From the sequence record PZ445435.1: 64,000 nucleotides of DNA, one strand, 5' to 3'. Below the pieces are notes generated by a model, which made no database searches, had not been told where the DNA came from, and saw only the letters and a program-made list of their open reading frames with translations. The stretch is from a phage. Position numbers and translations under genes: made by a program. This document shows positions 1,864 through 64,000 of the stretch, one piece after another (positions within the stretch are counted from its first letter, which is position 1; every line of letters begins with the position of its first letter).

Positions 1864-2241
1864 TTAAATATCAAATTCGTTAAGAACTACATCAAAGATT
1901 GCTTCCAAGTGCTCAGGTTTAGCTTTGTTACTCAGAATATGACGAATCCAAGTTTTAACTAAGAGTTTACGATTAGCACCATTCCAGCAAGGATGAGTCC
2001 CTAAATCGCGTTGGCGGAAATCATCATCCAGAGCGATTTTGAAGTTGGAACCTTTCATCGTGATTGAAACCGTGATACCGTTTTCAAATCGCATATAAAC
2101 GTAGTTAGGAGTCATATACTGTTCAATTTCGCATACTGATCCGTTTTGATGTTTCCAGAGGCAAATAGTATCAATAGAACCTGCAATACCATTAGAAACA
2201 TATTTACGTTCAAAGTTGATGTAGTTCATTTTATTCTCCAA
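1864..2241 (-). CDS. hypothetical protein (125 aa)
   Basis: ORF track. Confidence 0.45.
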   Translation of the reverse strand: MENKMNYINFERKYVSNGIAGSIDTICLWKHQNGSVCEIEQYMTPNYVYMRFENGITVSITMKGSNFKIALDDDFRQRDLGTHPCWNGANRKLLVKTWIRHILSNKAKPEHLEAIFDVVLNEFDI

Positions 2242-2264
2242 GATGTTTAATTGCGGTACAGGTA

Positions 2265-2294
2265 TATAATATCATATCCTGTACCAAAGTAAAC
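2265..2294 (-). promoter_or_regulatory. T4-type early promoter (-35 GTTTAC, -10 TATTAT region)
   Basis: GTTTAC at 2294..2289, -10 about 17-18 nt downstream; palindrome gtacagg...cctgtac encloses the -10. Confidence 0.5.
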
Positions 2295-2296
2295 AA

Positions 2297-2629
2297 TTAT
2301 TTTACTACTTTCCAATGCTGCATGTCAAGTTTACCAACTTTTTTCATCTTCTCAATTAAGCGTTCTGCACGTTGGCGAGCTGTAACATAATGCCATTCGC
2401 CTAATTCATTTTGTTCAATTTTTCCAACGATTACTGTATTCAATTCATAAATCCAACCAGTAAAGAAATTATGAACTTGAATTGTAAAGGTGAAATCTGT
2501 TCCCATACCTTCTGTTGTTTCTACTTCAATAATATCACCTTCAACTGCCATTAAGAACCACATAGTTTCATTATATTTACCATTGAAGCATTTAGTTTTA
2601 ACTGCAGCGTTCAGATTAATCGTTTTCAT
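2297..2629 (-). CDS. hypothetical protein (110 aa)
   Basis: ORF track. Confidence 0.45.
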   Translation of the reverse strand: MKTINLNAAVKTKCFNGKYNETMWFLMAVEGDIIEVETTEGMGTDFTFTIQVHNFFTGWIYELNTVIVGKIEQNELGEWHYVTARQRAERLIEKMKKVGKLDMQHWKVVK

Positions 2630-2656
2630 TTTATTCTCCTTTGTTTGTGTAAGATA

Positions 2657-2686
2657 ATACTATCACAAAGGAACCATACTGTAAAC
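2657..2686 (-). promoter_or_regulatory. T4-type early promoter (-35 GTTTACA, -10 TAGTAT)
   Basis: Motif match and spacing; just downstream of a terminator hairpin. Confidence 0.5.
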
Positions 2687-2708
2687 AACTTTGTGCAATC
2701 TTTGGAAA

Positions 2709-2734
2709 ATAAAAAAGGACTCCCGAAGGAGTCC
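2709..2734 (-). terminator. rho-independent terminator (GGACTCC-UUCG-GGAGUCC + U6)
   Basis: Perfect 7-bp stem, UUCG loop, T-run on minus strand. Confidence 0.7.
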
Positions 2735-2739
2735 TCAAC

Positions 2740-2916
2740 TTATGCTTTCTGCTTACCAAAACGAGAAGCATCATCTCGAAGAACCGCACGTGCTCGGCGC
2801 ATGATCTTCTCAACAGTTTGATTGATACGAGAGTTCGACCCACGCTTGTAGCCAGCGCGTTTAGAATCACCAACTTTCTTTTCAACTGCTTTCTTTGCTT
2901 TAGCTTGTTTTGCCAT
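2740..2916 (-). CDS. small basic protein (58 aa, start at internal ATG)
   Basis: ORF track; Lys/Arg-rich; T4 30.9 position. Confidence 0.4.
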   Translation of the reverse strand: MAKQAKAKKAVEKKVGDSKRAGYKRGSNSRINQTVEKIMRRARAVLRDDASRFGKQKA

Positions 2917-3204
2917 TATAAATTCTCTTTTAAATGAAAATGCAGGACTTATTGGCATTGCCTGCGAAAGCCCTCAAAGGGGTACTTAGGTTTTGAATAT
3001 TTACCGACAGGATAACCATAAACCCGTCATCATACCACCAAGACTTACACAGATAACACTTTTCTGACGCATGATAGTAACATTCAAGAGGTACACCATA
3101 AAACTGCCGGGGTCTTAAAACTATAATGATTCGCAAATCATTAATCAGACAGTTCGACGGCTCCTCGTTTTAACTTCACACTAAGGCAGTGACTCTCCAA
3201 TAAA

Positions 3205-3453
3205 TTACTTCAGTGTTACCACAAAGTGACGAACTGCTTTTCGTGCGGCAGAAGCCAGAGGCTTAGCATATTTAAGTTCATCTTTTTCCTGAAGCTCAGC
3301 AGCTAATGCAGTTTGAGCAGGATTCAGATGTTTGAAATAACGCAGGATTTCAAGAGCTTCGGCTTCAACATCAATAGATGCGCCATAGTTTTCGTGACCA
3401 TTATTCCATGCGTTTCGTTGCAGTTCAAGAGCGTGTTGTAATTGTTTAATCAT
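3205..3453 (-). CDS. rIII: lysis inhibition accessory protein rIII
   Basis: 82-aa product matches recalled T4 RIII sequence and position next to gene 31. Confidence 0.85.
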   Translation of the reverse strand: MIKQLQHALELQRNAWNNGHENYGASIDVEAEALEILRYFKHLNPAQTALAAELQEKDELKYAKPLASAARKAVRHFVVTLK

Positions 3454-3571
3454 TTAAAAATTCTCGTTAGAGATTAAAACTCGGTAGTCACGTTCTTCTG
3501 AATTTCATCTTCTTTCGACAGATCTCTCAGTTGTAGACTACCACATAGAATTGAAACTCAATTCATATTAT

Positions 3572-3579
3572 TATTTATA
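3572..3579 (-). promoter_or_regulatory. candidate late promoter TATAAATA
   Basis: Exact TATAAATA on minus strand upstream of rIII. Confidence 0.35.
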
Positions 3580-3915
3580 TCACTTATAAAGACACGGAAT
3601 AGCTTTATAGTGACAGGTAACAAATTTTTGTTTAATTTCTTTTGGCTGCTTAAGACCTAGAGCTACAAAAGGATGCGGAACGTTTCGAATTTGACCAACT
3701 GGAAGAGAAGTCAAATCACCAACTTCGCAGAAACCTTCAGGAACATCAGGACCAACAGAGTGAACTACACACAGTTCAGGAACTTCACCTTGGACACGTT
3801 TACCAATAATAAGTCCTGATTCTGTAACTTCTTCATCACCGGCTTGCGCAGGTTCAGAAACTAAAATAACATATTCACCGACAGCACGAATTGGTAGCTG
3901 TTGTACTTCAGACAT
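3580..3915 (-). CDS. 31: co-chaperonin gp31 (GroES analogue for capsid folding)
   Basis: 111-aa product matches recalled T4 gp31. Confidence 0.9.
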
Positions 3916-3971
3916 CGTTTTTCCTTTTTGTTAACAGATGAATTAATAATAACAAATAATTCTTAAAGCAT

Positions 3972-4280
3972 TTATTTACCAATAAATTGAAGCAAATGCT
4001 CAACTTTCATGCCATTAACGGAAATCAATTTGTCAATAGAAAAACCTCGCCATGCACCGAGTTCAACATCAAATATCGGAATCATATCAGTAGATTCTTT
4101 CCGAGTAGATTCAGTCAATTTACCGGTTTGCATAGTTGGCATAAAGTCAGCATCACGGGTGCCTTTCATAGTACGAATAGTACCATCAGACTTTTCAAAA
4201 ACCACGTTTGAAATACCCATGGACAATTTAGTTTTCAAAATTTCACGAATTGCTACTTTCTGTTCAGTTGTCAGTTTCAT
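3972..4280 (-). CDS. hypothetical protein (102 aa)
   Basis: ORF track. Confidence 0.45.
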   Translation of the reverse strand: MKLTTEQKVAIREILKTKLSMGISNVVFEKSDGTIRTMKGTRDADFMPTMQTGKLTESTRKESTDMIPIFDVELGAWRGFSIDKLISVNGMKVEHLLQFIGK

Positions 4281-4517
4281 TTATTTACCTATTACAGTTT
4301 TAATATGAGTTGTTCCACGTTCTTTAAGAGTGGAAAGCAACTTTTGGCATTTTTCTAAATCAGATTTCCAACTATATGGTCTATCAATACTAGTCCAATC
4401 AGTTTTATAATACTGCTTCCATTTAGAGAAAAAATATTTCTTATACTCTACAGCAAATGAAATGTTCTCATTAGAATAAGAACTAATTGCTGTGAGTTGT
4501 ACCAAACGAAATTTCAT
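4281..4517 (-). CDS. hypothetical protein (78 aa)
   Basis: ORF track. Confidence 0.4.
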   Translation of the reverse strand: MKFRLVQLTAISSYSNENISFAVEYKKYFFSKWKQYYKTDWTSIDRPYSWKSDLEKCQKLLSTLKERGTTHIKTVIGK

Positions 4518-5098
4518 TATTCACCACAGAATTCGTTGATATTTTCCCAATTTAACTTATTCAAGTTTTTCTTAGGAACATTAAACACTTCAATACCTGC
4601 ATTTCGCAGAATATCATCCCAGCCAGGTTTATTTTTATCGTATGTTTCGCAATAAACCAGTTTTTTAATTCCAGATTGAGCTATGGCTTTTGCGCAATCT
4701 GGACAAGGAGAAAGTGTTACATACATAGTAGCACCTTCAATAGAAGAACCATTTCGTGCAGCAAACAAAATTGCATTTAGTTCAGCATGAATTTCATTTT
4801 TAGACGACCATTCAGAGTGAGCGCTACGGTGTTCTTTCGCCAAGACAAAGCGATCAGTTGAACCAAATGATACGCATTCAGGCTTATGGCCTTGGATGAT
4901 AGTATGTTTAGGTTTATTCAGCAACCAACCTTGCTCAGCGGCATAATCACAACAGTTCACACCTCCTGCGGGTGAACCGTTATACCCAGTAGAAATAATA
5001 CGTCCATTCTTTTCAATTACTGCTCCTACCTTCCAGGAGCAACATTTTGATTCTTGTGATACTAAATATGCAATTTGAAGTACTGTACTCGCTTTCAT
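4517..5098 (-). CDS. cd: dCMP deaminase
   Basis: 193 aa; HAE...PCxxC zinc-binding deaminase motifs. Confidence 0.9.
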   Translation of the reverse strand: MKASTVLQIAYLVSQESKCCSWKVGAVIEKNGRIISTGYNGSPAGGVNCCDYAAEQGWLLNKPKHTIIQGHKPECVSFGSTDRFVLAKEHRSAHSEWSSKNEIHAELNAILFAARNGSSIEGATMYVTLSPCPDCAKAIAQSGIKKLVYCETYDKNKPGWDDILRNAGIEVFNVPKKNLNKLNWENINEFCGE

Positions 5099-5433
5099 TT
5101 CATAATCACCAGATAAGCAGATTTAGCAGTTTCAACACGATAAATTTCATGACGAAGTTTAGTTATACTTTTAATAACAGAACTAATTATATTCTGTCCG
5201 TCTTTAAAGCGGTTTTTCTTATCAATAAAAATTGCGCCAACCATCTTTTTGTGAAGCTCAACTGGATACTTCGTCACAATAATAGCATCATATACAGAAG
5301 GATGAATACTATTTACTAGAGTGTCATTCATTAAAGTTATTCTAATGAACTGTGCTGTTTCAGAGTCAAGCGCTCTATGATCGCCAGTATCATTTTCAAG
5401 ACAATTATCAATTATATCAGTTAAATTCATCAT
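5095..5433 (-). CDS. hypothetical protein (112 aa)
   Basis: ORF track, ATGA overlap. Confidence 0.45.
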   Translation of the reverse strand: MMNLTDIIDNCLENDTGDHRALDSETAQFIRITLMNDTLVNSIHPSVYDAIIVTKYPVELHKKMVGAIFIDKKNRFKDGQNIISSVIKSITKLRHEIYRVETAKSAYLVIMK

Positions 5434-5708
5434 AGTACGCCATACACCCTTTGTGCTTCAACTAATCCATCAAAATCCAGTTTAAGATGCGATATTTGAT
5501 CGCCATCACCTGGATTCACAATTACTAATACTGAACGAGGAGTTTCGGTAATAACACGAACCGATGTTTCAGGAAATCGTTCAGAAACCTTATTTACCAA
5601 TTCCTGAGCAAATAGTTTAACTTTTTCTTGGAATTCTTTAACAGTAATTGGTTTTTCACTTAGCAGCATTTTGTTTTCCTCATTTGTTTGGTAGAGCCAT
5701 AATATCAC
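5430..5708 (-). CDS. hypothetical protein (92 aa)
   Basis: ORF track. Confidence 0.45.
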   Translation of the reverse strand: MILWLYQTNEENKMLLSEKPITVKEFQEKVKLFAQELVNKVSERFPETSVRVITETPRSVLVIVNPGDGDQISHLKLDFDGLVEAQRVYGVL

Positions 5709-6394: not shown

Positions 6395-7616
<1,222 letters not shown>

Positions 7617-7620
<4 letters not shown>

Positions 7621-10666: not shown

Positions 10667-11845
10667 TTAAAAATATTTTTTAAAACTCATCATAACTTTA
10701 TCATCAACATCATTATCAATCTGTGCAACAAGATAAGATGACAGTTCTACTTCTTGTGGCGCGGATTGAACATTATCAGAATTAAGATATTCACGAATCC
10801 AAGGATATGGGTGTTTAACCGGAGCATCGGTAATTGGGCATGGAAGACCACACTGTTTCATACGAGATACAGTTAAGTAATCAATAAAGCTCCACATGTT
10901 ATTTGTATTTAATCCAGGAACATCGCCATCTTTAAATAAATGAACTGCCCAATCTTTTTCTTGGCGGTTAACTTCCATGAAAATATCAACTGCTTCTTGT
11001 TCACACTCTTGAGCAATTTTAACCCATTCATCGCCATCAGTGCCAAGTTGAAGTTGACGAATAATATATTGAGTGCCTTTAAGGTGAAGCTGTTCATCAC
11101 GTGCAATGAACTTCATAATCTTTGCATTGCCTTCCATAATTTCCATGTTCTTATGGAAGTTAAAGGTACATGCGAAAGATACATAAAAACGAATAGCTTC
11201 CAATGCGTTGATTACATGCAAACAGAGGTAAAGAGATTTCATTAGCTCACGCTTCCAATATGTCTCATGCTCAATAGCATCTTCAATAACATCTTCGTCT
11301 GCATTAATTTCTTTTTGGTATTCGATATCAGCTTTAGCGTTTTCCCAATAACGAGTTTTAGTCAGAACATCATCATAATAACGTCCAATGGATTCAGCAC
11401 GTTTCATAATAGCTTCATCTAATACAATCTCATCAAATACCTTTGACGGATCAGTATAAAGATTTCGCATGATATGTGTATATGAACGAGAGTGAATAGT
11501 TTCACTAAAAGTCCACGTAGCAACCCATGTATCAAGGCTTGGGTCTGAAATTAATGACATAAGTACAGCAGACGGCGCACGACCCTGAATGCTATCCAAA
11601 AGTGATTGATACTTCAGGTTATTAGTAAAAATATTTTGCTGATACTGAGGAAGCTTATTAAACTGTGCAGCATCCATCATTAAGTTTACTTCTTCAGGAC
11701 GCCAAAAAAATGATAAAGATTTCTCAATAAGTTCTTCAAATACTCTATGTCGTTGAATATCATATCGAGCTAAACCCAATCCAGAACCAAAAAACATCGG
11801 CTCAGTCAAAATATTAACAGGGGATGTATTAAAAACTGTACTCAT
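10667..11845 (-). CDS. nrdB: ribonucleotide reductase small subunit (intronless)
   Basis: 392 aa, di-iron/tyrosyl radical R2 family, contiguous ORF. Confidence 0.9.
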   Translation of the reverse strand: MSTVFNTSPVNILTEPMFFGSGLGLARYDIQRHRVFEELIEKSLSFFWRPEEVNLMMDAAQFNKLPQYQQNIFTNNLKYQSLLDSIQGRAPSAVLMSLISDPSLDTWVATWTFSETIHSRSYTHIMRNLYTDPSKVFDEIVLDEAIMKRAESIGRYYDDVLTKTRYWENAKADIEYQKEINADEDVIEDAIEHETYWKRELMKSLYLCLHVINALEAIRFYVSFACTFNFHKNMEIMEGNAKIMKFIARDEQLHLKGTQYIIRQLQLGTDGDEWVKIAQECEQEAVDIFMEVNRQEKDWAVHLFKDGDVPGLNTNNMWSFIDYLTVSRMKQCGLPCPITDAPVKHPYPWIREYLNSDNVQSAPQEVELSSYLVAQIDNDVDDKVMMSFKKYF

Positions 11846-12483
11846 TTAGAATCCTTAAATTTACATTTATCATAATGCCATCTTAAAGCATTGCCTTTAT
11901 TAACTTTCTTGCCACAATGCGGACAAGGCGGATACTCTGTACCTTGCTTAGTTCTCAAAGAAATCAAATCACGGGTTTCTTTAGTATGAGGAACATCTCT
12001 TGTCGGAGAGATTGTACCATACATCGGATTAAGCACGCCGACTTTAGCAGCAGCTATATTCTTTTTAGCTTCTTCGGTTTTAGGTTTTCTCATGCGAGCT
12101 AAATGCTCTTTGGTAAATTTCCTTCCTTTAAGGGCTCTACTTATCTTTTCTCTGGTTTCCATAGAAACTTCACGTCCTGTAGCAGCTTCAGATAAACGTC
12201 GTCTACCTAATTCGTACAGTTGAGAAGAAATTTTATATGAGCGATTTTTACCAGTCAAGCACATTAAACCAAAAGCTTTCTTTAATCCTGGAGTGTCATA
12301 TATTTTACATAAAAGCCAATGAGCTATAAAATGCTCTCTACCTGTTAATTCAACTAAATTTTCTTTATCATCAGAACCTCCCATACATCTAGGGATTATA
12401 TGATGAGTCTCTTTATATCCTAATAAAGGTTCCCGGGTTTGAGCCCGGGAAATTAAACTATTATATACATTTTGATAATTCAT
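11842..12483 (-). CDS. mobE: free-standing HNH homing endonuclease (MobE-like)
   Basis: HHIIPRCMGGSDDKENLVELTGREHFIAHW HNH core and C-terminal CPHCG zinc finger; lies between nrdA and nrdB. Confidence 0.75.
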   Translation of the reverse strand: MNYQNVYNSLISRAQTREPLLGYKETHHIIPRCMGGSDDKENLVELTGREHFIAHWLLCKIYDTPGLKKAFGLMCLTGKNRSYKISSQLYELGRRRLSEAATGREVSMETREKISRALKGRKFTKEHLARMRKPKTEEAKKNIAAAKVGVLNPMYGTISPTRDVPHTKETRDLISLRTKQGTEYPPCPHCGKKVNKGNALRWHYDKCKFKDSK

Positions 12484-16183: not shown

Positions 16184-16531
16184 TCAATACGGTTTAGCAT
16201 CAAATTTTCTCTCAATTTCAGGCGTGAAATATAATTCTTTACCGCGTTTGGAAAAGCGACCAATAATATGATAATTATTCTCATCAAACGTGATATTACC
16301 AATATCCATAGCTTTCAACCAAATATCGATATTTCTATCCAACTTTATGTCAAAATTCCAATACGGAGAACTATTACCGAAAATACTGCAAGCGGATTCA
16401 GTAAAACAACTACTATAAATCTTATCTTTAGGAACTACTAATTGATAGACACCTTTAATAAACTGAGGACCCTGCCATTTTGGTTGTTTCGTGTCTTTTT
16501 CTAATAGAATAGGGTAATAATTAAAATTCAT
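16184..16531 (-). CDS. hypothetical protein (115 aa) inserted between frd and td
   Basis: ORF track; no recognisable motif. Confidence 0.45.
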   Translation of the reverse strand: MNFNYYPILLEKDTKQPKWQGPQFIKGVYQLVVPKDKIYSSCFTESACSIFGNSSPYWNFDIKLDRNIDIWLKAMDIGNITFDENNYHIIGRFSKRGKELYFTPEIERKFDAKPY

Positions 16532-16550: not shown

Positions 16551-17377
<827 letters not shown>

Positions 17378-17388
17378 ATTATCTCCTA

Positions 17389-17721
17389 TTAAAAAGGATC
17401 AGGAACATATCCGCTAGCTTTAATCATTTTAATTAACGTTAACATTCCTTTGTTAACTGCTCGTGAGATTTCATCAAAAACTTCATCACTAAAAAGTTCT
17501 AACACACCCTTCTGAACTTTTAATTTACAGCCAACAATTTCGTCATCGCCTATAGTAAATTCATTACCACCAATTCCTCCGAAAAACTTAATTACACCAG
17601 TTAACTGTCTTCCACGAGAATATGGATCGTGTGATAAATTAATATGAGTCACCCCGGGTACAGTTTTAAATTGGCAGCGAATGTTTACTTGTGAAATTCC
17701 AGTTACATGAATATCAGACAT
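17389..17721 (-). CDS. hypothetical protein (110 aa)
   Basis: ORF track. Confidence 0.45.
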   Translation of the reverse strand: MSDIHVTGISQVNIRCQFKTVPGVTHINLSHDPYSRGRQLTGVIKFFGGIGGNEFTIGDDEIVGCKLKVQKGVLELFSDEVFDEISRAVNKGMLTLIKMIKASGYVPDPF

Positions 17722-19747: not shown

Positions 19748-19818
19748 TTTTATTTCCTTTTTAATTTAATTAACAGTTGGTGCTATGACGATGTATGACC
19801 TCATAGCTGGTCAGTGAG
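19748..19818 (-). promoter_or_regulatory. gene 32 translational operator (5' pseudoknot plus AU-rich leader)
   Basis: Leader reads ...GGUCAUACAUCGUCAUAGCACC...UUAAUUAAAUUAAAAAGGAAAUAAAAAUG as in T4. Confidence 0.7.
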
Positions 19819-19821
19819 ATA

Positions 19822-19846
19822 ATTATAATCTATTTATAATAAGCAA
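19822..19846 (-). promoter_or_regulatory. gene 32 promoter region: candidate MotA-box middle promoter (TTGCTTA ... TATAAT) overlapping a TATAAATA late promoter
   Basis: Minus strand reads AATTGCTTATTATAAATAGATTATAAT. Confidence 0.5.
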
Positions 19847-27842: not shown

Positions 27843-30800
27843 ATGGCTACTTTAAAACAAATACAATTTAAAAGAAGCAAAACCGCAGGTGCACGTCCTG
27901 CTGCTTCAGTATTAGCCGAAGGTGAATTGGCTATAAACTTAAAAGATAGAACAATTTTTACTAAAGATGATTCAGGAAATATCATCGATTTAAGCATTTC
28001 TACTGGCGGTAATATCAGTGGTAATATCACTCAAACTGGTGATTATACACAGACTGGAAAATTTAATTTAATTGGTCCGCAAATTGTAGCAAGCGGTGGA
28101 TATATTGAGTTTAATTATCGTACTACTGGAAGTGGGGCTTGGTCCGGTCAACATACTGCGAAAGCTCCAATTTTTGTAGATTTAAGCTCAGCTACTTCCA
28201 CATCTGAATATAATCCTATAATTAAACAGCGCTTTAAAGATGGAACTTTTTCATTAGGTACTTTAGTTTCTGAAGGTTCGTTGAAGATTCATTATATCAA
28301 TGAATCTGGCGATTCGAAATATTGGACGTTTCGACGTGACGGCGGATTTACTGTTGACGGTGGAGGTTTAGCAGTATCAGGAGGTAGTATAACTACATCT
28401 GGAAATATTGCAGCTATTGGAAATATTACTTCGCCTCAGATTAATACTAAAAATATTATTTTAGATACAAAAGCATTTGGACAATACGATTCGCAATCAT
28501 TAGTTCAATATGTTTATCCTGGAACAGGCGAAGAAAATGGTATAAACTATCTTCGTAAAGTTCGAGCTAAATCAGGCGGTACAATTTATCATGAATTAGC
28601 TTCTGCGCAAACCGGAAAAAGTGATGAACTTTCTTGGTGGACTGGTAATACAGCCGTTAATAAACAAATGGGTCTTCGTAATGATGGGGCTTTAGTATTA
28701 CGACGCTCACTCGCAATTGGTACAATTACAACAGATGAAAACATTAATAACTACGGCTCCGCTGGAGCAATGGGCGAATGTTATATAGTTATCGGTGATG
28801 CATCAACAGGCTTATCATACAAAAAAACTGGAGTATATGATTTAGTTGCTAGTGGTCTTTCTTTAGCATCTATTACTCCTGATAGTTTCCGTAGTACCCG
28901 TAAAGCGATTTTTGGTCGTTCCGAGGACCAAGGTACAACATGGATTATGCCTGGAACCAACGCCGCGTTTTTATCGGTTCAAACACAAGCTGATGAAAAC
29001 ACTGCTGGAGACGGCCAGACGCATATTGGCTATAACTCAGGCGGAAAAATGAACCACTATTTCCGTGGTAAAGGCAAAACTAATATTAATACTCAAGAAG
29101 GCATGGAAGTTAACCCGGGTATTTTGAAATTGGTAACTGGCTCTAATAATGTAATGTTTTATGCTGATGGCGGTATTACATCTGTTAAGCAGCTTTCAAT
29201 ATATAATGGCATATATTTAGCAGCTAATAATTCTACTGCTGGGCTAACATTCGCTCCAACTACTACAATTGATGGCACTAAGCAAATTTTGTGGGAAGGC
29301 GGTACTCGTGCTGGTCAGAATAAAAGCTATGTAACTGTTAAAGCATGGGGTAATTCATTTAACGCATCTGGCGATCGTAATCGTGAAACGGTTTTTGAAG
29401 TAGCTGATGGACAAGGATATTATTTTTATTCACAGCGTGTGGCTCCAAGTGGCTCTGAAACTACTGGGCCTGTTGTAACCCAGTTCAATGGACAAGTTAA
29501 TGCTAGAGGAAGTATTATTACTGACGGAAGTTTTAAAGTTAATGGATTAAGCACTTTAGTCGGTAATGTTACCATGTCTAATGGTTTGTTTGTCCAAGGT
29601 GGTTCTTCTATTACTGGACAAGTAAAAATTGGTGGAACTGCTGATGCATTAAGAATTTGGAATGCCGAATACGGTGCTATTTTCCGTCGCTCAGAAACAG
29701 CATTACATATTATCCCGACTCCTAAAGATGCCGGTGAAAGTGGTGGAATAAGTAATCTCCGCCCACTTAGTATTAGTCTTAATAATGGTATGGTACAAAT
29801 GCGCCATTCTGTTACGTTAGGCGATGATGGCGCTGGCGGTAATATGATTACTGTGGACAACGATACCAAACTTGTTGTTGTTACTAGTAATAGTCGCATT
29901 TCTCCTAATTACCGTATGCAGGTAGGACAAGCAGCTTATATTGATGCTGAATGTACTGACACAGTTCGCCCGGCTGGTGCAGGGTCTTTTGCTTCACAAA
30001 ATAATGAAAACGTTCGTGCTCCATTCTATATGAATATTAATCGTACAGATACAAGTACTTACGTTCCTATTTTGAAACAACGATATGTCCAAGGAAACAG
30101 TTGTTATTCTCTGGGAACTCTAATTAACGGCGGTAACTTCAGAGTTCATTATCATGAAGGCGGCGATGGCGGTTCGACTGGCGCTATTATAAAGGATTTA
30201 GGTTGGGAATTTAACAAAAATGGTGATTTTATATCTCCTAAGCGTGTTTCTGCTGGTGGTTCAGTTTATTTAGGTACAGACGGCAATATTACAGGTGGTT
30301 CTGGCAATTTTGCTAATTTAAACAGTACAATTGAATCACTTAAAACCGATATTGTATCGAGTTACCCAATCGGTGCTCCTATTCCATGGCCAACGGATAC
30401 TCCTCCTGACGGTTACGCTATTATGGAAGGCCAGACTTTTGATAAGTCTGCATACCCAAAATTGGCTATGGCTTACCCATCTGGCGTAATTCCAGATATG
30501 CGCGGGCAAACTATTAAAGGTAAACCAAGTGGTCGAGCTGTATTAAGCGCAGAAGCCGATGGTGTTAAGGCTCATAGCCATAGTGCATCGGCTTCAAGTA
30601 CTGACTTGGGTACTAAAACTACGTCGAGTTTTGATTATGGTACTAAGACGACAAGTAGCTTTAACTATGGCACTAAGACTAGCAATACCACAGGTAACCA
30701 CTCTCATACTGTAAGCGGTACTACGAGTTCTGCTGGTGCACACCAACATGCGCGCTCAGGTCCTCAGATACAAGCCGGCATACCCAATAACATATTCTAT

Positions 30801-35228: not shown

Positions 35229-35378
35229 TTACTGCATGACAGTTATCACAGTCATGATAACACGTTGAATTCCGAACGCAAGAAGACCTCCTGCTACGGC
35301 TGGAACAACGCCTAACCCTGCCAGTAAAACGCTACCAGATACTAATGCAGCGCTTGTAATACCAATGAATGGACTCAT
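35229..35378 (-). CDS. small hydrophobic membrane peptide (49 aa, not in track)
   Basis: Own translation; ATGA overlap with gene 52 stop. Confidence 0.35.
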   Translation of the reverse strand: MSPFIGITSAALVSGSVLLAGLGVVPAVAGGLLAFGIQRVIMTVITVMQ

Positions 35379-36703
35379 TTGATTTCCTCTAAATCTTTGG
35401 TGTATTCAGTAACTACATCAGTAGTTTTCCAATATTCGTTTTCTTCTTTTTTAGCTTTAGCTTCTTCAGCAAGTTTCTTTGCTTCGTCGGAAGTCATATG
35501 AAAAATATTCATACCAACTAGTTTATCAACATAAGAAGAATACATCTCAATTTTAGAAAGTTCTTCAGTCAGTTCTTTGCGAGTTTTACCCTGCACAACG
35601 ATTTCGCCTGAAATTACTTTCTTAATGAAATGTGCCTTGGCAAAGGCTAAACGAAAAGCTGATTCAGTTTCTTTGATTTTGTTATCAATTCGTTTTTGGA
35701 CATAAGTTTTACGAACTTCAACAAAGTCTTTAATTAAATCAACTACATTATCGTAAACTTGTAGCTTTCCTTTCTCATTAATAACGGTGATATTCTGGGA
35801 ACGACGCTCAATCAACCCAAAGTCTTTCATGATTTTTGCATGGCGTTCTTCTTCGTTATCGCTTAAGGAATATTCTTTACGGAATTTAACTTTGAAGCCA
35901 AAACCATGCTCACCGCAAGCATCATCCCACGTAATGAAGCCTTTATCTTCAAGCGGGTCTAAGATTTTACTCACATAAGTTTCACGATCATACTTATACG
36001 GAATCTCAGTGATATGCATTTGAGTTCGTGAAGTAAACTTGTATGTTCCACGAATTTCATATTGACCGTCAATTTCAACGACTTCACCGCGAAATTCTGG
36101 GAATTCTACCTTCGGTTTAGTTACTTTCTTTCCTTGAAGAGCTTGCAGTACAGCTTTCTTGACAGAAGAAACGCTATGAGGAAGAATGTAAGTTGCATAA
36201 CCAGTTGCAATACCGGAAACACCATTAAGAAGAACAGTAGGAATAATAGGCAAATAGAAAGCAGGCGGAATGTGTTCTTTATCTTGATGTACCGGAGCAT
36301 ATTCAGTATCTTTATATACATTATAGAAATTTTTACTTACACGAGCAAAAATATAACGACTTGCCGCTGCTTTTTGAACGGTACGAGAACCAAAGTTTCC
36401 TTGACCATCTAACAAAGGAAAGTTATTATTCCAAGTGTTAGCCATCAAAGCACCTGCGTCTTGCGCAGAGTTTTCACCATGATGATATCCAAGGTCTGCT
36501 ACACCGCCTGCAATAGAAGCGAGTTTGTGAAACTTATCTTTATTTCCTCGTGCCAAATCAAGAGCTCGAGCAATAACAAATCGTTGAACTGGCTTAAATC
36601 CATCAATCATATTTGGGATAGCACGATTTTCAACCGTGTACATAGCATAAGCCAATGCTTCATTATCAATGATACTTTTTAAATCGCGATTATTCAGTTG
36701 CAT
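35375..36703 (-). CDS. 52: DNA topoisomerase II medium subunit gp52
   Basis: 442 aa; GyrA-like N-terminal domain, size and synteny. Confidence 0.9.
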   Translation of the reverse strand: MQLNNRDLKSIIDNEALAYAMYTVENRAIPNMIDGFKPVQRFVIARALDLARGNKDKFHKLASIAGGVADLGYHHGENSAQDAGALMANTWNNNFPLLDGQGNFGSRTVQKAAASRYIFARVSKNFYNVYKDTEYAPVHQDKEHIPPAFYLPIIPTVLLNGVSGIATGYATYILPHSVSSVKKAVLQALQGKKVTKPKVEFPEFRGEVVEIDGQYEIRGTYKFTSRTQMHITEIPYKYDRETYVSKILDPLEDKGFITWDDACGEHGFGFKVKFRKEYSLSDNEEERHAKIMKDFGLIERRSQNITVINEKGKLQVYDNVVDLIKDFVEVRKTYVQKRIDNKIKETESAFRLAFAKAHFIKKVISGEIVVQGKTRKELTEELSKIEMYSSYVDKLVGMNIFHMTSDEAKKLAEEAKAKKEENEYWKTTDVVTEYTKDLEEIK

Positions 36704-38498: not shown

Positions 38499-38762
38499 TC
38501 ATAGTTCAATCTCAGCGATTTTCATTTTATTACTATTAATAGCCTCTTTAAGACTATCTGAAAGAATTACATTCCAGTGGTCATTCATATGACCATTAAC
38601 TAAGCGTGTAATTTCTTCAGGAGTTGAAAAATAAGGCTGATCAGACTCCCAATGCGATAATCCTAAGCGAGTATAAATCATGCCTTCATCATCGCTAGAA
38701 TATTCAACTGACACAAACTCATCAGTTATTTTATGTTTAGCGTAATAAAATTTAAATTTCAT
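38499..38762 (-). CDS. hypothetical protein (87 aa)
   Basis: ORF track. Confidence 0.45.
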   Translation of the reverse strand: MKFKFYYAKHKITDEFVSVEYSSDDEGMIYTRLGLSHWESDQPYFSTPEEITRLVNGHMNDHWNVILSDSLKEAINSNKMKIAEIEL

Positions 38763-40636: not shown

Positions 40637-42814
40637 TTAGGCCGCAAGGGCCTTCATAGTTTTAGCGATTTGGGAAACTTCATCATCACTTAAAGAGTTG
40701 CGATAACCGATGAAGTCGGAAACAATACGGAATTTCTTGGTAAACTCAGCAACCATTTTATCACTATTTTTTGAAGCATTACGTGATAATTCATCAAAGA
40801 GATTAGTTACTGTCCAGATATCATGACCGATGGTATCTTTTCCACCATTGAAATACACACCGCGTAATGAACTAACCATATTACCAAGTCGTGTATATTC
40901 TTCAGAAACTTCATCTGTACTGAAGTACTTCATCATAAAATCTAGTTCAGGATACTTGATAATTTTATCAATATATCGTTGAGCTGAACTTGAATAACCT
41001 ACATACTTATCATAATCTACATCATCAAAAGCATCTACATATAAATCACGCAAAGCTTCAAAAATACATTGGCACTGACCGAGTTCTTTTACCTTTTTCT
41101 GTAAAAGCGGACGAATAACATAAAATTCATTAATGCCAATAAGATTAGCCATACGAATCAAAATATTCATAGATGGATGACAAAGAGATGTAGTACCATC
41201 CATAGAGAAAATATCAGAACGATGCATATACGCTACATAACCAGTAATTTCATCTGCTTCTGATGTGAGCGTAAATAATTCCTCTTTTTCCCAGCGCCCG
41301 TCTTTAATTTCAAACTTAAATGCTGTAGCAGCTTTAGGACGAGGAGCTTTACTTTTAACTACCTTTGGAATATAGCTTTTAACTAAAGCTTCAATTTCTG
41401 ACAAATAATGAATGTTAACTTCATCACTTTCAAACATCGCCATAATATCAGGAAGTAAATCAATCTGCGATTCTACTTCTGGATTAATAAACAGAAGACG
41501 CTCATTATGATGAATATTCAAAGTGTTATTAAATTCACTATCATCTAACGCTCGTGCTAATCCACGAACAATATTAACACGATTTTTAATATTATCAATA
41601 ACAATATTAATTTTTGTTGTATTAATACCAAACAGACGATAACTTGATGCAACAGCTGAAGTTTCATGACTTTGCTTAATGCGCTTCAGTCGAGGGTCAA
41701 GATTTACTTCATACACAACTCCTGCATTGCATAACTTACTATCAGGTTCAAACATGCTTTGCATCTTCTTATATGACAGATTTTTAGTCGTAAATTTGAC
41801 TGAATTACTAATCATATAATCTCGAGCAGAATACCCCATCTTCATCAATTCACGATATGTATGACGAGGAGATGTAGATTCTTTAAATCGTTTTACATCT
41901 TCATTGAATGCCTTCTCACTAAGCTCTTTAACACGCTCAATAATATTTTTACGGGTACGATCATCTAATGAAAGAGCTTCGCGTGATGGAGCAATATCAA
42001 GTGAACCCATTGGAAACTTAATGTAATTCACTTCATTGCGGATGCTTAACCAGTTACGGTCTCTAATAACACCATCGATAGGATAAACAATACCACCATA
42101 GATAGCATACAATCCACCACGATCTGGCCAGTATCTTTCTGGATTTACGCCGTAATAGTCATCAAAATCCGGAAAATAATCAATTTCGCGGTCAAGACCG
42201 TTAATAATAGCCAAATCTTTGAATGGTCGCATGATATAAGAAACTTCATAAGCAAAGTTTCTAAAGTCTTTTTCTTCAACTGGAACTACGATTTCAATAC
42301 CAGTTTTATCATTTGGACCCATTTCTTTTACGAATGTAGGTTTAATTTGTGGACCATCGCCATCCATGTAAGCTACATAACCACGAATTTCGCCTTTATG
42401 ATATGAAGTAATACTAAATGTATCAGTATAACTAAACGGAGATTTAGAACCTAAACCAAATCCGCCAATGAAATCGTTAGATTCAGCCTTAGATGAACTA
42501 AAGTATGAATTATACAACCCAGGAGAATTATCATCACCTTGAATATCAAAATCGCTCATACCCGGACCAAAATCTCGGCAAACAAATCGCGGATCTAATC
42601 GTCCTGGAACTTGAATGATAAATTTTTCAGGATTTCCATTGAGAGCATGGGCATCAATCATGTTGGTAATCAATTCACGGACTACTGCGCGAATCTTGTT
42701 TGTATACAAATCAGATGACAGAATTTTAAATACTTTAGGAGATGCTGTGATGCTAAATGCTTTTGATTTAGAACCATTGCCAAGAATTGTTTCTTTTTCA
42801 GTGGTGATAATCAT
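40637..42814 (-). CDS. rIIA: rIIA protein
   Basis: 725 aa; synteny. Confidence 0.9.
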
Positions 42815-42824
42815 AATTTCCTCA

Positions 42825-43028
42825 TTAATTCATATTGCGTTTAATAACTTCAGCAACTTCTAGTAGTTCATCTTTAGTTGCGGTGTCGGATTGAATTTTA
42901 TCTCTAATATCCTTAAAGCGGTTTTTAAACTCTTCGGCTTCTCCCATATCGAAAAAGCGTTGAATGATTCTATATTCTCGATGAACTGCTTTATCAAAAA
43001 GTTCTAAATTTACTTTATATGATTTCAT
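42825..43028 (-). CDS. hypothetical protein (67 aa)
   Basis: ORF track. Confidence 0.4.
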
Positions 43029-43053
43029 TTCAATATCCTCATTTGCCCAATTA

Positions 43054-43083
43054 ATTATACCACATCCTTGTGGTAAAGTAAAC
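43054..43083 (-). promoter_or_regulatory. T4-type early promoter (palindrome CCACATCCTTGTGG in spacer)
   Basis: GTTTAC ... GTATAAT on minus strand. Confidence 0.5.
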
Positions 43084-44900
43084 TACTGGCTCATCCATTC
43101 TTTACGAAGGTCAGCATTATCTCCCATGAGCATTTCAAAAAGCTCTTTCCAGTTCTCAGGAAGTTTAACAACATCATATACTGGGTTTTGAATCATCTCA
43201 CGATATTCAGATTTTTCCAAAGAGCCAAGTCCCTTAATATAACGGATGCTATGTTTAGGTAGAGCATCTTTGGCACTCTCATATTCAGCGACTGTATAAA
43301 ACCATTCTTGTTTTTTACCGACCTGAGCGATGATTACAGGAGTTTTGACGAAGCGAATTCTTCCTTGTTCAAACAGTTCTGGCCAATTACTAAAAAATCC
43401 GAGCAGAGAAGGATAAATGCTTCCTAGACCATCGTGGTCAGCATCGGTCATAATAGCAATATTATGATAATTCAAGTTTTCAGCTTTTTCACCAAGAACT
43501 AATCCAGTGATTGCGCAAATATCAAATAGTTCTTTGTTTTTAAGCATATCAGCATATGACATACCCCAACTGTTGAGAACTTTACCACGCAATGGATAAC
43601 CACCATGAAGTTCTTTATCACGAACATCAATAAGATATCCGATAGCAGAATCACCCTCAGTCAAGAAAAGAGTAGTATCAGCATCTTTACCGCACAGATT
43701 AGCTTTAATATGTTTATGAACCTTTGCCTTAGAAGCCTTTTTAGCTGCTTTAGTTTCAGCTGCTTTTTCTGCTGCCAATTTACGAGCTAGTGCAGCTTCA
43801 ATAATTGGCATTAAAATTGCTTCATTATTTAAAATAGCGCGTGAAATCTTTTTAGCGTCAAGTTGAATATGACTACGGATTTCACCAAATGGAGAAGTCA
43901 AACGCTCTTTAGTTTGAGAATCAAATCGCATGTTTTTCATATCACGAAGAAACATAACGATAGTCAAACATTCTTTAACACGTGCTTTAGTTACATCAAT
44001 TTTGAATTTACGTTTGATTTGTGGAATAAGGTCTTCACAAATATCATCCATAACGCAGTCAATGTGATGGCCACCATTCTTAGTGTGAATGTTATTCACA
44101 TAAGTTAATTGACGAAAACCATCCGGTGAACGACCAACCGCAATAGAACAATTTTCTTGTTCTTGAACAATAGCATGTTCATCATACTGTCGTGCATATT
44201 TCTTAAAATTGCCCTGAACCTTTTTACCATTAAAGGTAAATTGAATATCAGGATAAACTACTGCAAGTGTCTGGAGACGATCCAGTGTAATGTCAAGATA
44301 AACTTGGGACAGCTCATTAGTTTCAAATGACATAAAATCTGGAATGAAAGTAACACGAGTTCCTTTCCATTTTCCAGGAATAGTTTCCCAGGATTTATTT
44401 TCCATGCCATTTGAACAACGAACTACAATATTATTTTGACCATCGCCAGTTTCACCGACAAACATCACAGAAAAAATGTTAGTTAAACTAGAACCAACAC
44501 CATTCATACCACCGGTGACACGTTCTTTATCATCACCAAAGTTACCACCCGCTTTTGGAATAGTCCAAGCAGCAACTGGACCAGGAATTTCTTCACCGGT
44601 AGGTGTTTTAACCATCGCTTGTGGAATACCACGACCGTTATCTTCAACTGTTACTTGATTGTTTTTGATAGTAACATTAATTTTATTTGCGAATTTAAAC
44701 TTAGTACGAATACCTTCATCTACTGAGTTATCGATAATTTCATCAATAAGCTTAACAAGACCAGGTACATACTGAACACTTTCCCATTTACCAAACAGAA
44801 AGCGCTCATGCATTTCATTAGCAGAAGAGCCAATATACATGCCGCTACGCTTTTTGATATGTTCAATATCGCTCAGAATTTTAATTTCATTCTTAATCAT
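43083..44900 (-). CDS. 39: DNA topoisomerase II large subunit gp39, uninterrupted (T4 39 and 60 equivalents fused)
   Basis: 605 aa continuous ORF; C-terminal 90 aa correspond to what T4 encodes separately in gene 60. Confidence 0.9.
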   Translation of the reverse strand: MIKNEIKILSDIEHIKKRSGMYIGSSANEMHERFLFGKWESVQYVPGLVKLIDEIIDNSVDEGIRTKFKFANKINVTIKNNQVTVEDNGRGIPQAMVKTPTGEEIPGPVAAWTIPKAGGNFGDDKERVTGGMNGVGSSLTNIFSVMFVGETGDGQNNIVVRCSNGMENKSWETIPGKWKGTRVTFIPDFMSFETNELSQVYLDITLDRLQTLAVVYPDIQFTFNGKKVQGNFKKYARQYDEHAIVQEQENCSIAVGRSPDGFRQLTYVNNIHTKNGGHHIDCVMDDICEDLIPQIKRKFKIDVTKARVKECLTIVMFLRDMKNMRFDSQTKERLTSPFGEIRSHIQLDAKKISRAILNNEAILMPIIEAALARKLAAEKAAETKAAKKASKAKVHKHIKANLCGKDADTTLFLTEGDSAIGYLIDVRDKELHGGYPLRGKVLNSWGMSYADMLKNKELFDICAITGLVLGEKAENLNYHNIAIMTDADHDGLGSIYPSLLGFFSNWPELFEQGRIRFVKTPVIIAQVGKKQEWFYTVAEYESAKDALPKHSIRYIKGLGSLEKSEYREMIQNPVYDVVKLPENWKELFEMLMGDNADLRKEWMSQ

Positions 44901-44953
44901 CACTTATCCTCGTTTGGTTTCGGGAATATTATACTCCGGTAATCATAAAGCTA

Positions 44954-44970
44954 AAGGCCCGAAGGCCTTT
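44954..44970 (-). terminator. hairpin AAGGCC-UUCG-GGCCUU downstream of lipoprotein gene
   Basis: Perfect stem; weak U-tract. Confidence 0.4.
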
Positions 44971-45239
44971 TATTTAAAACGAATAGTTGAATCCTTAAAG
45001 AACAGCCCAGAACATACTGTTCCTTCTACTTTCTGCCCAGTAGGTCCAACAGCACGAAATCCAGTATGTTGGAAATCATTTTCAGAGCAACCGAACCAGT
45101 TATATCCAGTGATTTCAATATTCGTAAAACCACTTGATGATAAAATTTTAGTTGCATTATCAGCATCAGTGCATCCTACTAAAGATACTGCTAATACTAA
45201 TGCTGCGATAGAACGATTAACATATTTCATAATTTTCAC
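44970..45239 (-). CDS. putative lipoprotein (89 aa)
   Basis: Signal peptide with LVGCT lipobox. Confidence 0.5.
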   Translation of the reverse strand: MKIMKYVNRSIAALVLAVSLVGCTDADNATKILSSSGFTNIEITGYNWFGCSENDFQHTGFRAVGPTGQKVEGTVCSGLFFKDSTIRFK

Positions 45240-45607
45240 TTAAATTTAATGGCTTGAAGGAGACTAATAATTCTTAAACGGCTTCTTTCATCTTTAACTG
45301 TAAAAGAAAGAGGGTCGCCAGATTTCATAGTAATAGTGCATTCAAAATCAAAATCTTCAGGAACTTCTTCGAAGAAGTCAAATTCTTCATCATAAATTAG
45401 AACATTACTCTGAAAACTGTGAAGAATTTTTCCATCATTTCCAGATGCTGTACTAATCATTGTAACATTATTACCTTTCATATCTTCAACGATAAATTCG
45501 CTTGTAGATATTACATTACTAATAGAACCATTCCTATAAATAGCAGAAAATAGATATTTCTTTTCTTCGCCTTCGCGAATACGATACTTCTTACCGATTT
45601 TAAACAT
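45236..45607 (-). CDS. hypothetical protein (123 aa)
   Basis: ORF track. Confidence 0.45.
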   Translation of the reverse strand: MFKIGKKYRIREGEEKKYLFSAIYRNGSISNVISTSEFIVEDMKGNNVTMISTASGNDGKILHSFQSNVLIYDEEFDFFEEVPEDFDFECTITMKSGDPLSFTVKDERSRLRIISLLQAIKFK

Positions 45608-46436: not shown

Positions 46437-46718
46437 TTAATTGAACAGTGGAGCGATGCGTTTCAGAAGAGTAGCAGCACCTTTAGCGAATTTTACATCA
46501 TGAAAAACAGTTTCTTCTTCCGTTACAACACGAGCTTTAATGTTTTCACAATCCCAATTTTTGCGAACAATCTTCAAAAGCTGCAGTAAATCTTTACATT
46601 CAGCAATATCGATAACACATCCACGAGAATCTTCCATTATCGCACGATAACCGTAAGCCATACCATAATCATTGAAAGATTGCTCGATGATAATTAAATT
46701 TTCCATTTTATTCTCCAA
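46437..46718 (-). CDS. hypothetical protein (93 aa)
   Basis: ORF track. Confidence 0.4.
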   Translation of the reverse strand: MENKMENLIIIEQSFNDYGMAYGYRAIMEDSRGCVIDIAECKDLLQLLKIVRKNWDCENIKARVVTEEETVFHDVKFAKGAATLLKRIAPLFN

Positions 46719-55769: not shown

Positions 55770-55979
55770 TTAAATTACATGATTATTTATAATAAATTCT
55801 CGCGGAACGTTAAAATACCCGATTTTAGTTAATATAACAACATCGCCGTTAATAATTACCGGAGAATAATCTTCTGGAGCATTAAATTTCCAATGGGCTC
55901 TAATATTATATCCATCAGAACCAAATGCTCGAGTAGCCGGTCTCCCGGCTTTTTGCCACGCGTAGAAATCAAATTTCAT
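55770..55979 (-). CDS. hypothetical protein (69 aa)
   Basis: ORF track. Confidence 0.4.
   Translation of the reverse strand: MKFDFYAWQKAGRPATRAFGSDGYNIRAHWKFNAPEDYSPVIINGDVVILTKIGYFNVPREFIINNHVI
55784..55791 (-). promoter_or_regulatory. late promoter TATAAATA for soc
   Basis: Exact consensus about 30 nt upstream of soc ATG. Confidence 0.6.
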
Positions 55980-56170
55980 TTTGAATGCTCTATAATTAAT
56001 TTTAAAGCTTCTTCACTGACAAAAATTTCGTCAGGACCTTCTATAACTTCAACCATACGAAGTTGATTAGTTAAGAGCTCACATACGAGCTCCTTGTTAT
56101 AATCTTTAAATAGCTGGTCAATACGTTTCTTATGGGCTTTCTTAAGCTGACGCTTATTTAAACGAGCCAT
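55976..56170 (-). CDS. hypothetical protein (64 aa)
   Basis: ORF track. Confidence 0.4.
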   Translation of the reverse strand: MARLNKRQLKKAHKKRIDQLFKDYNKELVCELLTNQLRMVEVIEGPDEIFVSEEALKLIIEHSK

Positions 56171-56688
56171 TAATAACCTCGGTCTTGACGAGCGAAGTTT
56201 TCAGCATTTTTCAGATAATAAAGTTTAAATATTTCTTCAGCTGACATTCCAAGAGCAATGAATTTATTCATGAAAAAGTGAAATTGATCAATCAGTTCAA
56301 ATTTAATTTCAAGTTGATCTTCAGGAGATAAGTCTTGAATTTTCTTGGATTGCATTTCAGAATAACGTTTCTTCCAAGGTTTCCATACGGCAGAAGCTTC
56401 TTTTTCACCATTACTCATACCACCAAGAGAAGTATATAGCTCGCGAGTTTCATCTGCGATATAATCGTCTTGGTTTCGCAACCAAGCAAGAACTTCTCCT
56501 GCAGTTTCAAGTGAATCGGGATGACGATTTGTTTCTGGTTTATCATTAGCCAAACGAATCTGTAAATGCCGCTGCATATCAAGCATAACCTGCAATGGGT
56601 CAATACTGTGCATAATATACTCAGCATATGCACGATTTGCTTTATCAACACCTTCGATCAAATGAGCACATTCATTAAAGTGAGCCAT
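56170..56688 (-). CDS. 56: dCTPase/dUTPase gp56 (MazG-like pyrophosphatase)
   Basis: 172 aa from internal ATG with AAGGA SD; track N-terminal extension is hydrophobic. Confidence 0.75.
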   Translation of the reverse strand: MAHFNECAHLIEGVDKANRAYAEYIMHSIDPLQVMLDMQRHLQIRLANDKPETNRHPDSLETAGEVLAWLRNQDDYIADETRELYTSLGGMSNGEKEASAVWKPWKKRYSEMQSKKIQDLSPEDQLEIKFELIDQFHFFMNKFIALGMSAEEIFKLYYLKNAENFARQDRGY

Positions 56689-56759
56689 TATTTTTCCTTT
56701 CAATTCATGGGTTAGTAGATTAATTATACAATAAATATATAAAGCAATAAGGAGGACAT

Positions 56760-58153: not shown

Positions 58154-58510
58154 TTAACCTCTATTCATAAAAGCATTAAAAATTTGGTCATCAATAGATG
58201 GTGCAGTAATATTTTCTGCATCATTTAGCAAATCATTAATTTCATCAGATAGCATAACACATGTACCTTTATTTCCTGTAATTGTTACTGCACAATTACG
58301 AACGTTTTCTTTATCAAATTTTAGGTTAATATTTTCGTAGTGAAAATCCTTTAATGCCGAATATATCTTTAAAATAAAATTGTCTTTTACTACAATAAAC
58401 CCAACCTCACTATTAAAACGTGGTTCATGGAAACTGTAATAAACCTTTTCATCTATAAAATCGTATGAAATTTTTTCCATTTTTAAATATGAAAATTCAG
58501 AACTATACAT
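58154..58510 (-). CDS. hypothetical protein (118 aa), single-domain paralogue of next ORF
   Basis: Shares FIVVKDN-type core and C-terminal SIDDQIFNAFMNRG with 215-aa neighbour. Confidence 0.5.
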   Translation of the reverse strand: MYSSEFSYLKMEKISYDFIDEKVYYSFHEPRFNSEVGFIVVKDNFILKIYSALKDFHYENINLKFDKENVRNCAVTITGNKGTCVMLSDEINDLLNDAENITAPSIDDQIFNAFMNRG

Positions 58511-63032: not shown

Positions 63033-63875
63033 TTAATCAACTGCTATTGGATGAATAGCATTAAACTTATGAAATGCTTCTGATTTTTCTTTGCGCGAAA
63101 CACACATGCGAAGAACCTTTAATGGCTCGTCTTCTTCACCCAACGATTTTCGTTTTTCAATATTAGAAGTTTTCCAACGAGCTTGCTCTGGAAACTCTCT
63201 ATTGATTTGCTCAAGCGCTCTATTATGTTTAGAATTACTACGAATTGAACTGCACCCGCCAGGAGCTTGTGCTTTTCCAGATACAACCAGATATTTGAAC
63301 AAGGCCAAATGCGGATAACCTTGATTAATTAAATTGAGAAATGCATACATATCTTCACATAAATCAATTTTTCCATACCCAATTTGTTCTGTCGTAAGTT
63401 TTCCGAGGTCATACCATGTATTCGTGAATCCATATGAATTTTCACGATAATTACCCCAAGATGAAGTAATTTTAAAAATAGGTAGACGAGCATGGCCATG
63501 ATAATACCCGCAATCCATAGCATCTTCAACGTATTGAATCAATTCGTAGAATTGTTCACGGGTTAATTGATTGACTTTATCTACACAGCGACGATCATCT
63601 CTTTTTCGCATTGAGCTCATACGAATCGTAGTATCATCGTCAATCATCCAGATTCGTTGACCTGCATACATATCAGTAATTGCTTTACGAGTACCGGCAA
63701 TTCCGTTTACATCATCAGGAATAGTTACAATTTTAGCTCTAGACCCATAGGCGTCATAATAAGCTTTTTCTTCATGTTCACGTACTACAATATGAGGTTC
63801 ATAATCAGTCGGAAACATATCAAGGGCAGAAACTGCCCCTACGCGTTGATAGCTCGGAATTACGAATTGAATCAT
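63033..63875 (-). CDS. GT-A fold (DxD) glycosyltransferase at the T4 beta-gt locus (about 280 aa)
   Basis: IWMIDDDTTI DxD motif; lies between uvsX and gene 42; does not resemble recalled T4 Bgt. Confidence 0.55.
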   Translation of the reverse strand: MIQFVIPSYQRVGAVSALDMFPTDYEPHIVVREHEEKAYYDAYGSRAKIVTIPDDVNGIAGTRKAITDMYAGQRIWMIDDDTTIRMSSMRKRDDRRCVDKVNQLTREQFYELIQYVEDAMDCGYYHGHARLPIFKITSSWGNYRENSYGFTNTWYDLGKLTTEQIGYGKIDLCEDMYAFLNLINQGYPHLALFKYLVVSGKAQAPGGCSSIRSNSKHNRALEQINREFPEQARWKTSNIEKRKSLGEEDEPLKVLRMCVSRKEKSEAFHKFNAIHPIAVD

Positions 63876-64000
63876 TTCCACTCACCGTTATAATCTTTTT
63901 TCACAATATGAGTTTCGCCAGTATTCCACCAATGATCAACCAAGTAAAAATGACGAGAATATACATGAAGACTTCCAACATTCCATATAATAGAACCTGC
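63872..64000 (-). CDS. 42: dCMP hydroxymethylase gp42, C-terminal 42 codons (partial)
   Basis: Own translation ...GSIIWNVGSLHVYSRHFYLVDHWWNTGETHIVKKDYNGEWK matches recalled T4 gp42 C-terminus. Confidence 0.65.
   Translation of the reverse strand, partial: AGSIIWNVGSLHVYSRHFYLVDHWWNTGETHIVKKDYNGEWK

Follow-up and report, generated by a model that had tools for sequence, protein, structure and literature searches.

Introduction

The type II topoisomerase of phage T4 is unique in having three subunits, whereas the T2 and T6 enzymes have two, gp39 and gp52; the structure of T6 gp39/gp52 was solved by cryo-EM and the enzyme was active, and the phage enzyme relaxes DNA rather than supercoiling it (2024 cryo-EM study, PMC11461880). 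The large-subunit gene of T4 was split, relative to that of related phage, by the insertion of mobA (2010 review of T4-like mobile elements, PMC2988022). Genomes without this insert were termed "parental (no MobA insert)" in a 2022 preprint (bioRxiv 10.1101/2022.08.31.505936), where it was reported that the MobA element in the T4 clade removes a 64-nt region; that the 3' end of the element lies just past D490/G491, with 9 further diverged nucleotides in clade 1; that MobA nicks T2 and homes into T2; and that in some clades the endonuclease and the bypass were secondarily lost while the insert-derived CTE/NTE were kept. In the T4 reference the locus lies on the minus strand and comprises genes 39 (516 aa), mobA/60.1, 60, rIIA.1 and rIIA, with gene 60 annotated as two exons joined over a 50-nt "non-coding translational bypass region".

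We examined gene 39 within a 64,000-nt stretch of phage DNA (record PZ445435.1), referred to as the window; coordinates are those of the window unless T4 is named. The window is colinear with T4 from ~127.6 kb through the genome end to ~23.5 kb, and its best 25-kb match was phage teqdroes (96.6%). The gene is, with very little doubt, a normal unsplit Tequatrovirus gene 39 of the T2/T6 type, encoding the GyrB-like half of topoisomerase II at a locus from which the MobA cassette is absent.

Reading frame, strand and start of gene 39

Gene 39 was found, from the ORF list and by translation, as a complete and unsplit CDS at 43083..44900 on the minus strand (ATG at 44900..44898, stop at 43085..43083) encoding 605 aa plus the stop. 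Translation of 43083..44900 revealed no internal in-frame stop across the 605 codons. An earlier note on this DNA had placed a 605-aa ORF at 43083-44900; its coordinates, its length and its freedom from stops all stood, and the strand, which is minus, had been left out. The strand matters, because the opposite (plus) strand of the same interval was riddled with stops on translation.

The longest ORF at the locus, 43083..44903 (minus strand, 606 aa), begins with a GTG one codon 5' of the ATG. We rejected this GTG at 44903 as the start and preferred the ATG at 44900, because an SD-like GAGGA at 44911..44907 stands at a spacing of 6 nt from the ATG and because MIKNEIK is the N-terminus of gp39 in T4, T2 and T6.

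Domains and relatives of the gp39 protein

Pfam searches of the gp39 protein returned HATPase_c (aa 47-149, E 1.9e-9), the transducer model DNA_gyraseB (aa 250-384, E 3.3e-13) and TOPRIM_C (aa 519-604, E 4.2e-7), and PHROG 543, "DNA topoisomerase II large subunit", matched over the full length (E 2e-295). The core Pfam Toprim model stayed below threshold on gp39, where only TOPRIM_C scored; this missing score is offset because the EGDSA and DxDxDG motifs, along with an end-to-end match to 8ylu, cover the region. The best PDB match was 8ylu_C (1386.9 bits, residues 1-605 on 1-605), this chain C being the single-chain "DNA topoisomerase (ATP-hydrolyzing)" of the T6 cryo-EM study; the next was 8yo3, an artificial T4 gp39-gp60 fusion.

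The GHKL ATPase motifs of gp39 map to 44493..44741 (minus strand) and consist of the N-box EIIDNSVDE (aa 54-62), G1 DNGRGIP (aa 87-93) and G2 GGMNGVG (aa 130-136). The QTK loop of the transducer domain (aa 329-331, within FDSQTKERL at aa 326-334) is encoded at 43908..43916 (minus strand), and the TOPRIM motifs EGDSA (aa 415-419) and DADHDG (aa 486-491) at 43428..43658 (minus strand), on one polypeptide. Gene 52, for the GyrA-like partner subunit responsible for cleavage and religation, was located at 35375..36703 on the minus strand (442 aa; Pfam DNA_topoisoIV, E 1e-76), in a block that is 96.9% identical to, and syntenic with, the T4 gene 52 region. These sequence features of a B-type subunit were found: a GHKL ATPase, the transducer QTK lysine, the TOPRIM Glu and DxDxD, and an A-type partner in the same genome.

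The T4 reference itself departs from the window near the QTK loop. At gene 39 codons 326-328 NC_000866 gives MRLIRQTK, a variant that adjoins the catalytic loop and is present in NP_049621.1, whereas MRFDSQTK is found in the window (43917..43925), in T2, in T6 and in resequenced T4 (MT984581). At the DNA level the discrepancy consists of a one-base deletion and a one-base insertion 8 nt apart, i.e., a compensated frameshift, which is probably a legacy sequencing error in NC_000866. We rejected "FDS" against the T4 "LIR" as a real feature of the window, since resequenced T4 agrees with the window.

The T2 and T6 records hold a 1,818-nt gene at the equivalent place and in the equivalent gene order (39 - rIIA.1 - rIIA). 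The window protein is 99.67% identical to T6 gp39, with two substitutions (L318V, Q526H), and 99.50% identical to T2 gp39, with three (F70L, T173D, L318V); full-length identity of 99.5-99.7% is, as judged by alignment, far beyond chance. The gene itself differs from that of T6 by 63 nucleotides and from that of T2 by 66, about 3.5% synonymous divergence. Because so many nucleotide differences leave so few amino acid changes, they argue for strong purifying selection on gene 39, and the pattern shows what one would look for in an expressed gene held under such selection.

It is hardly credible, given these data, that gene 39 only looks intact and is non-functional, for example with the host supplying topoisomerase. 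Mutants of T4 genes 39, 52 and 60 are DNA-delay and not absolutely lethal, so that topoisomerase function is partly dispensable; but in this phage the ATPase, QTK and TOPRIM motifs are all intact, and the T6 protein, from which gp39 differs by two residues against 63 nucleotide changes, is active and structurally solved.

Comparison of the locus with split gene 39/60 of T4

Residues 1-473 of the window protein aligned without gaps to T4 gp39 1-473 (98.1% identity), and residues 472-605 were colinear with T4 gp60 27-160 (95.5% identity). Two T4 segments had no match in the window protein: the 43-aa C-terminal extension of gp39 (residues 474-516) and the gp60 N-terminus (its first about 26-30 aa). 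The second alignment bears out the earlier claim that the ORF runs past GLVLGEKA (aa 466-473) into gp60-like sequence; the alignment check that had been proposed, against T4 gp39 plus gp60 and T2 gp39, was run with T6 added and yielded the unsplit form that had been predicted.

At the nucleotide level the blastn flanks paired window 45232..43483 with T4 5661..3911 and window 43418..42700 with T4 2793..2075. Between them lie 64 nt in the window (43419..43482) versus 1,117 nt in T4 (2794..3910), the T4 insert accounting for the homing-endonuclease cassette with mobA, the additional termini of the two proteins and the 50-nt bypass gap. Neither a mobA gene nor a mobA pseudogene was found at the window gene 39 locus, which has no counterpart of T4 2794..3910. 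Gene 39 is unsplit because no MobA cassette occupies the locus; the lengths between the flanks and the absence of any cassette component agree with what had been noted from the letters, that there is neither a split nor a bypass-like gap.

The 64-nt "parental" segment (43419..43482, minus strand) comprises codons 474-494 plus one base and encodes E-N-L-N-Y-H-N-I-A-I-M-T-D-A-D-H-D-G-L-G-S. When flanked segments were compared it showed 2 silent differences from T2 (ACC for ACT and CAC for CAT) and 5 differences from T6, and it clearly reads as the T2/T6 "parental" version and not as a diverged homR copy from a T4 cassette. The figures of the 2022 preprint were reproduced here: the segment measures 64 nt, the T4 gap comes right after Gly491, and the divergence runs on through codons 492-494.

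These comparisons bear on the history of the locus. A lineage invaded by the MobA cassette in the past that had then lost it cleanly, e.g., in recombination with an uninvaded phage during co-infection, would now look much the same, and we regard such a history as unlikely. T-even genomes are mosaic, the window and its best 25-kb relative sharing only ~96.6% identity and differing in many blocks, and clades with secondary loss of the endonuclease and bypass are known (bioRxiv 10.1101/2022.08.31.505936); yet the reported cases keep the CTE/NTE, of which there is no trace here, the protein being colinear with T2 and T6 gp39 with no extra residues, and the 64-nt segment has the T2/T6 parental sequence in place of the T4 homR version. 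A clean gene conversion would leave no visible trace, and the present nature of gene 39 would be unaffected either way.

We compared the bypass site codon by codon. The codon for Gly491, GGT at 43428..43430 (minus strand), is homologous to the GGA take-off codon of T4 gene 60 when window, T4, T2 and T6 are set side by side. The window there reads GAT GGT CTA GGA AGC (D-G491-L-G-S), with no stop and no gap, whereas T4 has GAT GGA, then the 50-nt gap (TAGCCTTCGGGCTATC...ATTGGA), and then TTA GGT TCT. The whole window gene 39 was scanned for a GGA followed in frame by a stop, for GGATAG in all frames, and for the T4 bypass take-off hairpin core (AGCCTTCGGGCT), and none of them occurs. The GGA take-off/landing pair that the earlier note had looked for and not seen is indeed lacking, the homologous codon being GGT and followed directly by CTA. 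A cryptic bypass-like element within gene 39 was accordingly rejected, there being no stop, no GGA plus stop, no GGATAG and no hairpin core.

Frequency of the uninterrupted locus among phages

The locus was surveyed by megablast with a 2.6-kb gene 39 query against 50,697 phage records, 536 of which matched. The locus was uninterrupted, i.e., covered in one continuous place over at least 80% of the query, in 505 of the 536, nearly all at 95-99% identity; the annotations among these include "DNA topoisomerase II large subunit" and "DNA gyrase subunit B". Only 43 records contained the T4-specific 1,117-nt insert, among them T4 strains, RB55, RB59, HY01 and vB_EcoM_112; in several of the insert-bearing records, as in resequenced T4 strains, the annotation gives a full-length homing endonuclease. 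With 505 uninterrupted against 43 insert-bearing records, most sequenced Tequatrovirus genomes have the unsplit gene, and it is T4 that is exceptional in its arrangement.

The survey also leaves the chance that an assembly or sequencing artefact collapsed a real insert at next to nothing. Nothing specific speaks for such a collapse. The uninterrupted arrangement recurs in 505 independently sequenced records, T2 and T6 included; the reading frame is kept across the junction; and cassette-bearing genomes contain nothing equivalent to the 64-nt segment, which therefore could not be created by the collapse of an insert.

Sequences flanking gene 39

Upstream of gene 39, reading along the minus strand, the stop of the preceding ORF is followed by a GC hairpin, AAGGCCTTCGGGCCTTT, at 44969..44953, which is a putative terminator in the annotation of the near-identical record MK373786. 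After it come a Mot-box-like AGCTTTA at 44952..44946 and a -10 TATAAT at 44933..44928 (all three minus strand and recognized by reading the sequence); from the known consensus, AGCTTTA and TATAAT together would form a putative T4-type middle promoter. Directly after the gene 39 stop, upstream of rIIA.1, there is a strong sigma-70-like promoter match at 43082..43054 (minus strand; TTTACT-17-TATAAT with extended-10 TG, 10/12).

Two ORFs lie directly upstream of gene 39, both on the minus strand and both annotated in T6 and R5505. One, at 45236..45607, is a 123-aa ORF that T4 lacks; it belongs to PHROG 622 and has weak goF-like N-terminal similarity (E 1.9e-7). The other, at 44970..45239, encodes a homologue of gp39.1 (89 aa) with an N-terminus (…LAVSLVGC…) that looks like the signal peptide of a lipoprotein; at the gp39.1 locus a "putative lipoprotein" is annotated in one related record.

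Other differences from T4 within the window

The mobA cassette is one of several T4 homing-endonuclease elements that are missing here, although one intact mob-type endonuclease is present. Both nrdB and td are intron-less (window 11170-11171 and 15587-15590), the T4 group I introns with I-TevIII (T4 138458-139057, 600 nt) and I-TevI (T4 143544-144564, 1,021 nt) being cleanly absent. The segG gene (623 nt in T4) is absent at 19811-19845 and segF (696 nt in T4) at 55792-56206, where the segF position holds ORFs of 69 aa and 64 aa, the latter matching PHROG 5782, "virion structural protein". An intact 213-aa homing endonuclease with HNH and NUMOD3 is encoded at 11842..12483 (minus strand; PHROG 655, E 9.5e-66), between nrdB and nrdA, where T4 has mobE; homing endonucleases are therefore not altogether missing from this genome.

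Genes concerned with DNA modification also differ. The dam gene (T4 16846-17625) is absent between genes 56 and 61, where 20 nt (56729-56748) stand in for 899 nt of T4; we rejected this absence as something unusual, since the dam-less junction was found in 291 phage records and is a common polymorphism. A beta-glucosyl-HMC-alpha-glucosyltransferase gene at 63033..63881 (minus strand; PHROG 842, E 3e-89; Pfam TAGT) comes after uvsX, where T4 has segA and beta-gt, and points to a gentiobiosyl DNA modification of the T2/T6 type.

Near genes 61.1/61.2 a 309-nt insertion relative to T4 accommodates a 118-aa ORF (58154..58510, minus strand) resembling the C-terminal part of AdfA, anti-DarT factor A (Pfam PF23813, E 1.1e-7), and is possibly a variant, or a duplicate in part, of an anti-defence gene. 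The region of the distal long-tail-fibre gene 37 (28456-30647) falls to 75-79% identity with T4 between flanks of ~96%, and is the usual host-range hypervariable segment. Five small ORFs of 87-115 aa, all on the minus strand, occur in segments that T4 lacks and look like typical T-even accessory-gene polymorphism: those at 7300..7620, 16184..16531 and 17389..17721 fall into PHROG families whose function is unknown (2364, 1928 and 3566, the ORF of PHROG 3566 also matching Pfam DUF7247), and Pfam searches returned no match for those at 38499..38762 and 46437..46718.

Discussion

The single 605-aa chain of this phage bears the ATPase, the transducer and a complete TOPRIM domain. From its near identity to the T6 protein, gp39 would pair with gp52, which is GyrA-like and carries the catalytic tyrosine, in an A2B2 heterotetramer; this enzyme would carry out ATP-dependent strand passage, relaxing and decatenating phage DNA in replication. 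We infer the strand-passage activity of gp39 by analogy with the active T6 protein, from which it departs at only two positions.

In T4 and a minority of its relatives, the cassette has taken the place of 64 nt inside the TOPRIM-coding region, and brought with it mobA, new termini for both halves of the protein and the 50-nt ribosome-bypass gap. The 64-nt segment in the window is presumably an unoccupied MobA homing site and as such susceptible to MobA; if a MobA-positive phage infected the same cell, the cassette could be copied in, whereby the gene would be split and the bypass introduced.

That gene 39 is unsplit in a phage of this kind is already known and is textbook T-even biology; nothing in the finding is novel. 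The unsplit gene serves as the common reference state for interpreting the T4 split gene and its 50-nt ribosomal bypass, and the window adds one more example of an unoccupied MobA target site. We think it very improbable that the phage represents a previously undeposited Tequatrovirus variant with a naive MobA site at which the two silent differences from T2 might alter susceptibility; this, if true, would be a small natural-variation datum on homing-site specificity and not a new kind of system. For annotation, the name [quoted passage not shown] is suitable, and neither gene 60 nor mobA should be expected in this genome.

Known systems close to this one include the cellular type IIA topoisomerases, for which the PDB matches were human topoisomerase II beta/alpha (E 1e-59), yeast topoisomerase II (5e-56), ParE (3e-48) and GyrB (3e-36). 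The order of domains, GHKL ATPase-transducer-TOPRIM, is held in common with GyrB/ParE and with the N-terminal half of eukaryotic topoisomerase II, but the phage enzyme is far smaller. T4 shares the enzyme, as gp39 plus gp60, and the flanking genes; it differs in that its TOPRIM EGDSA is in gp39 and its DADHDG in gp60, whereas both are on one chain here, and in having mobA, the gp39 C-terminal extension, the unique gp60 N-terminus, the GGA-TAG take-off, the hairpin and the 50-nt gap, which belong to T4 only. The gp39 proteins of T2, T6 and the window are all of 605 aa, colinear and ungapped, and the sequence at the MobA target and bypass site, GAT GGT CTA GGA AGC, is identical in the three phages.
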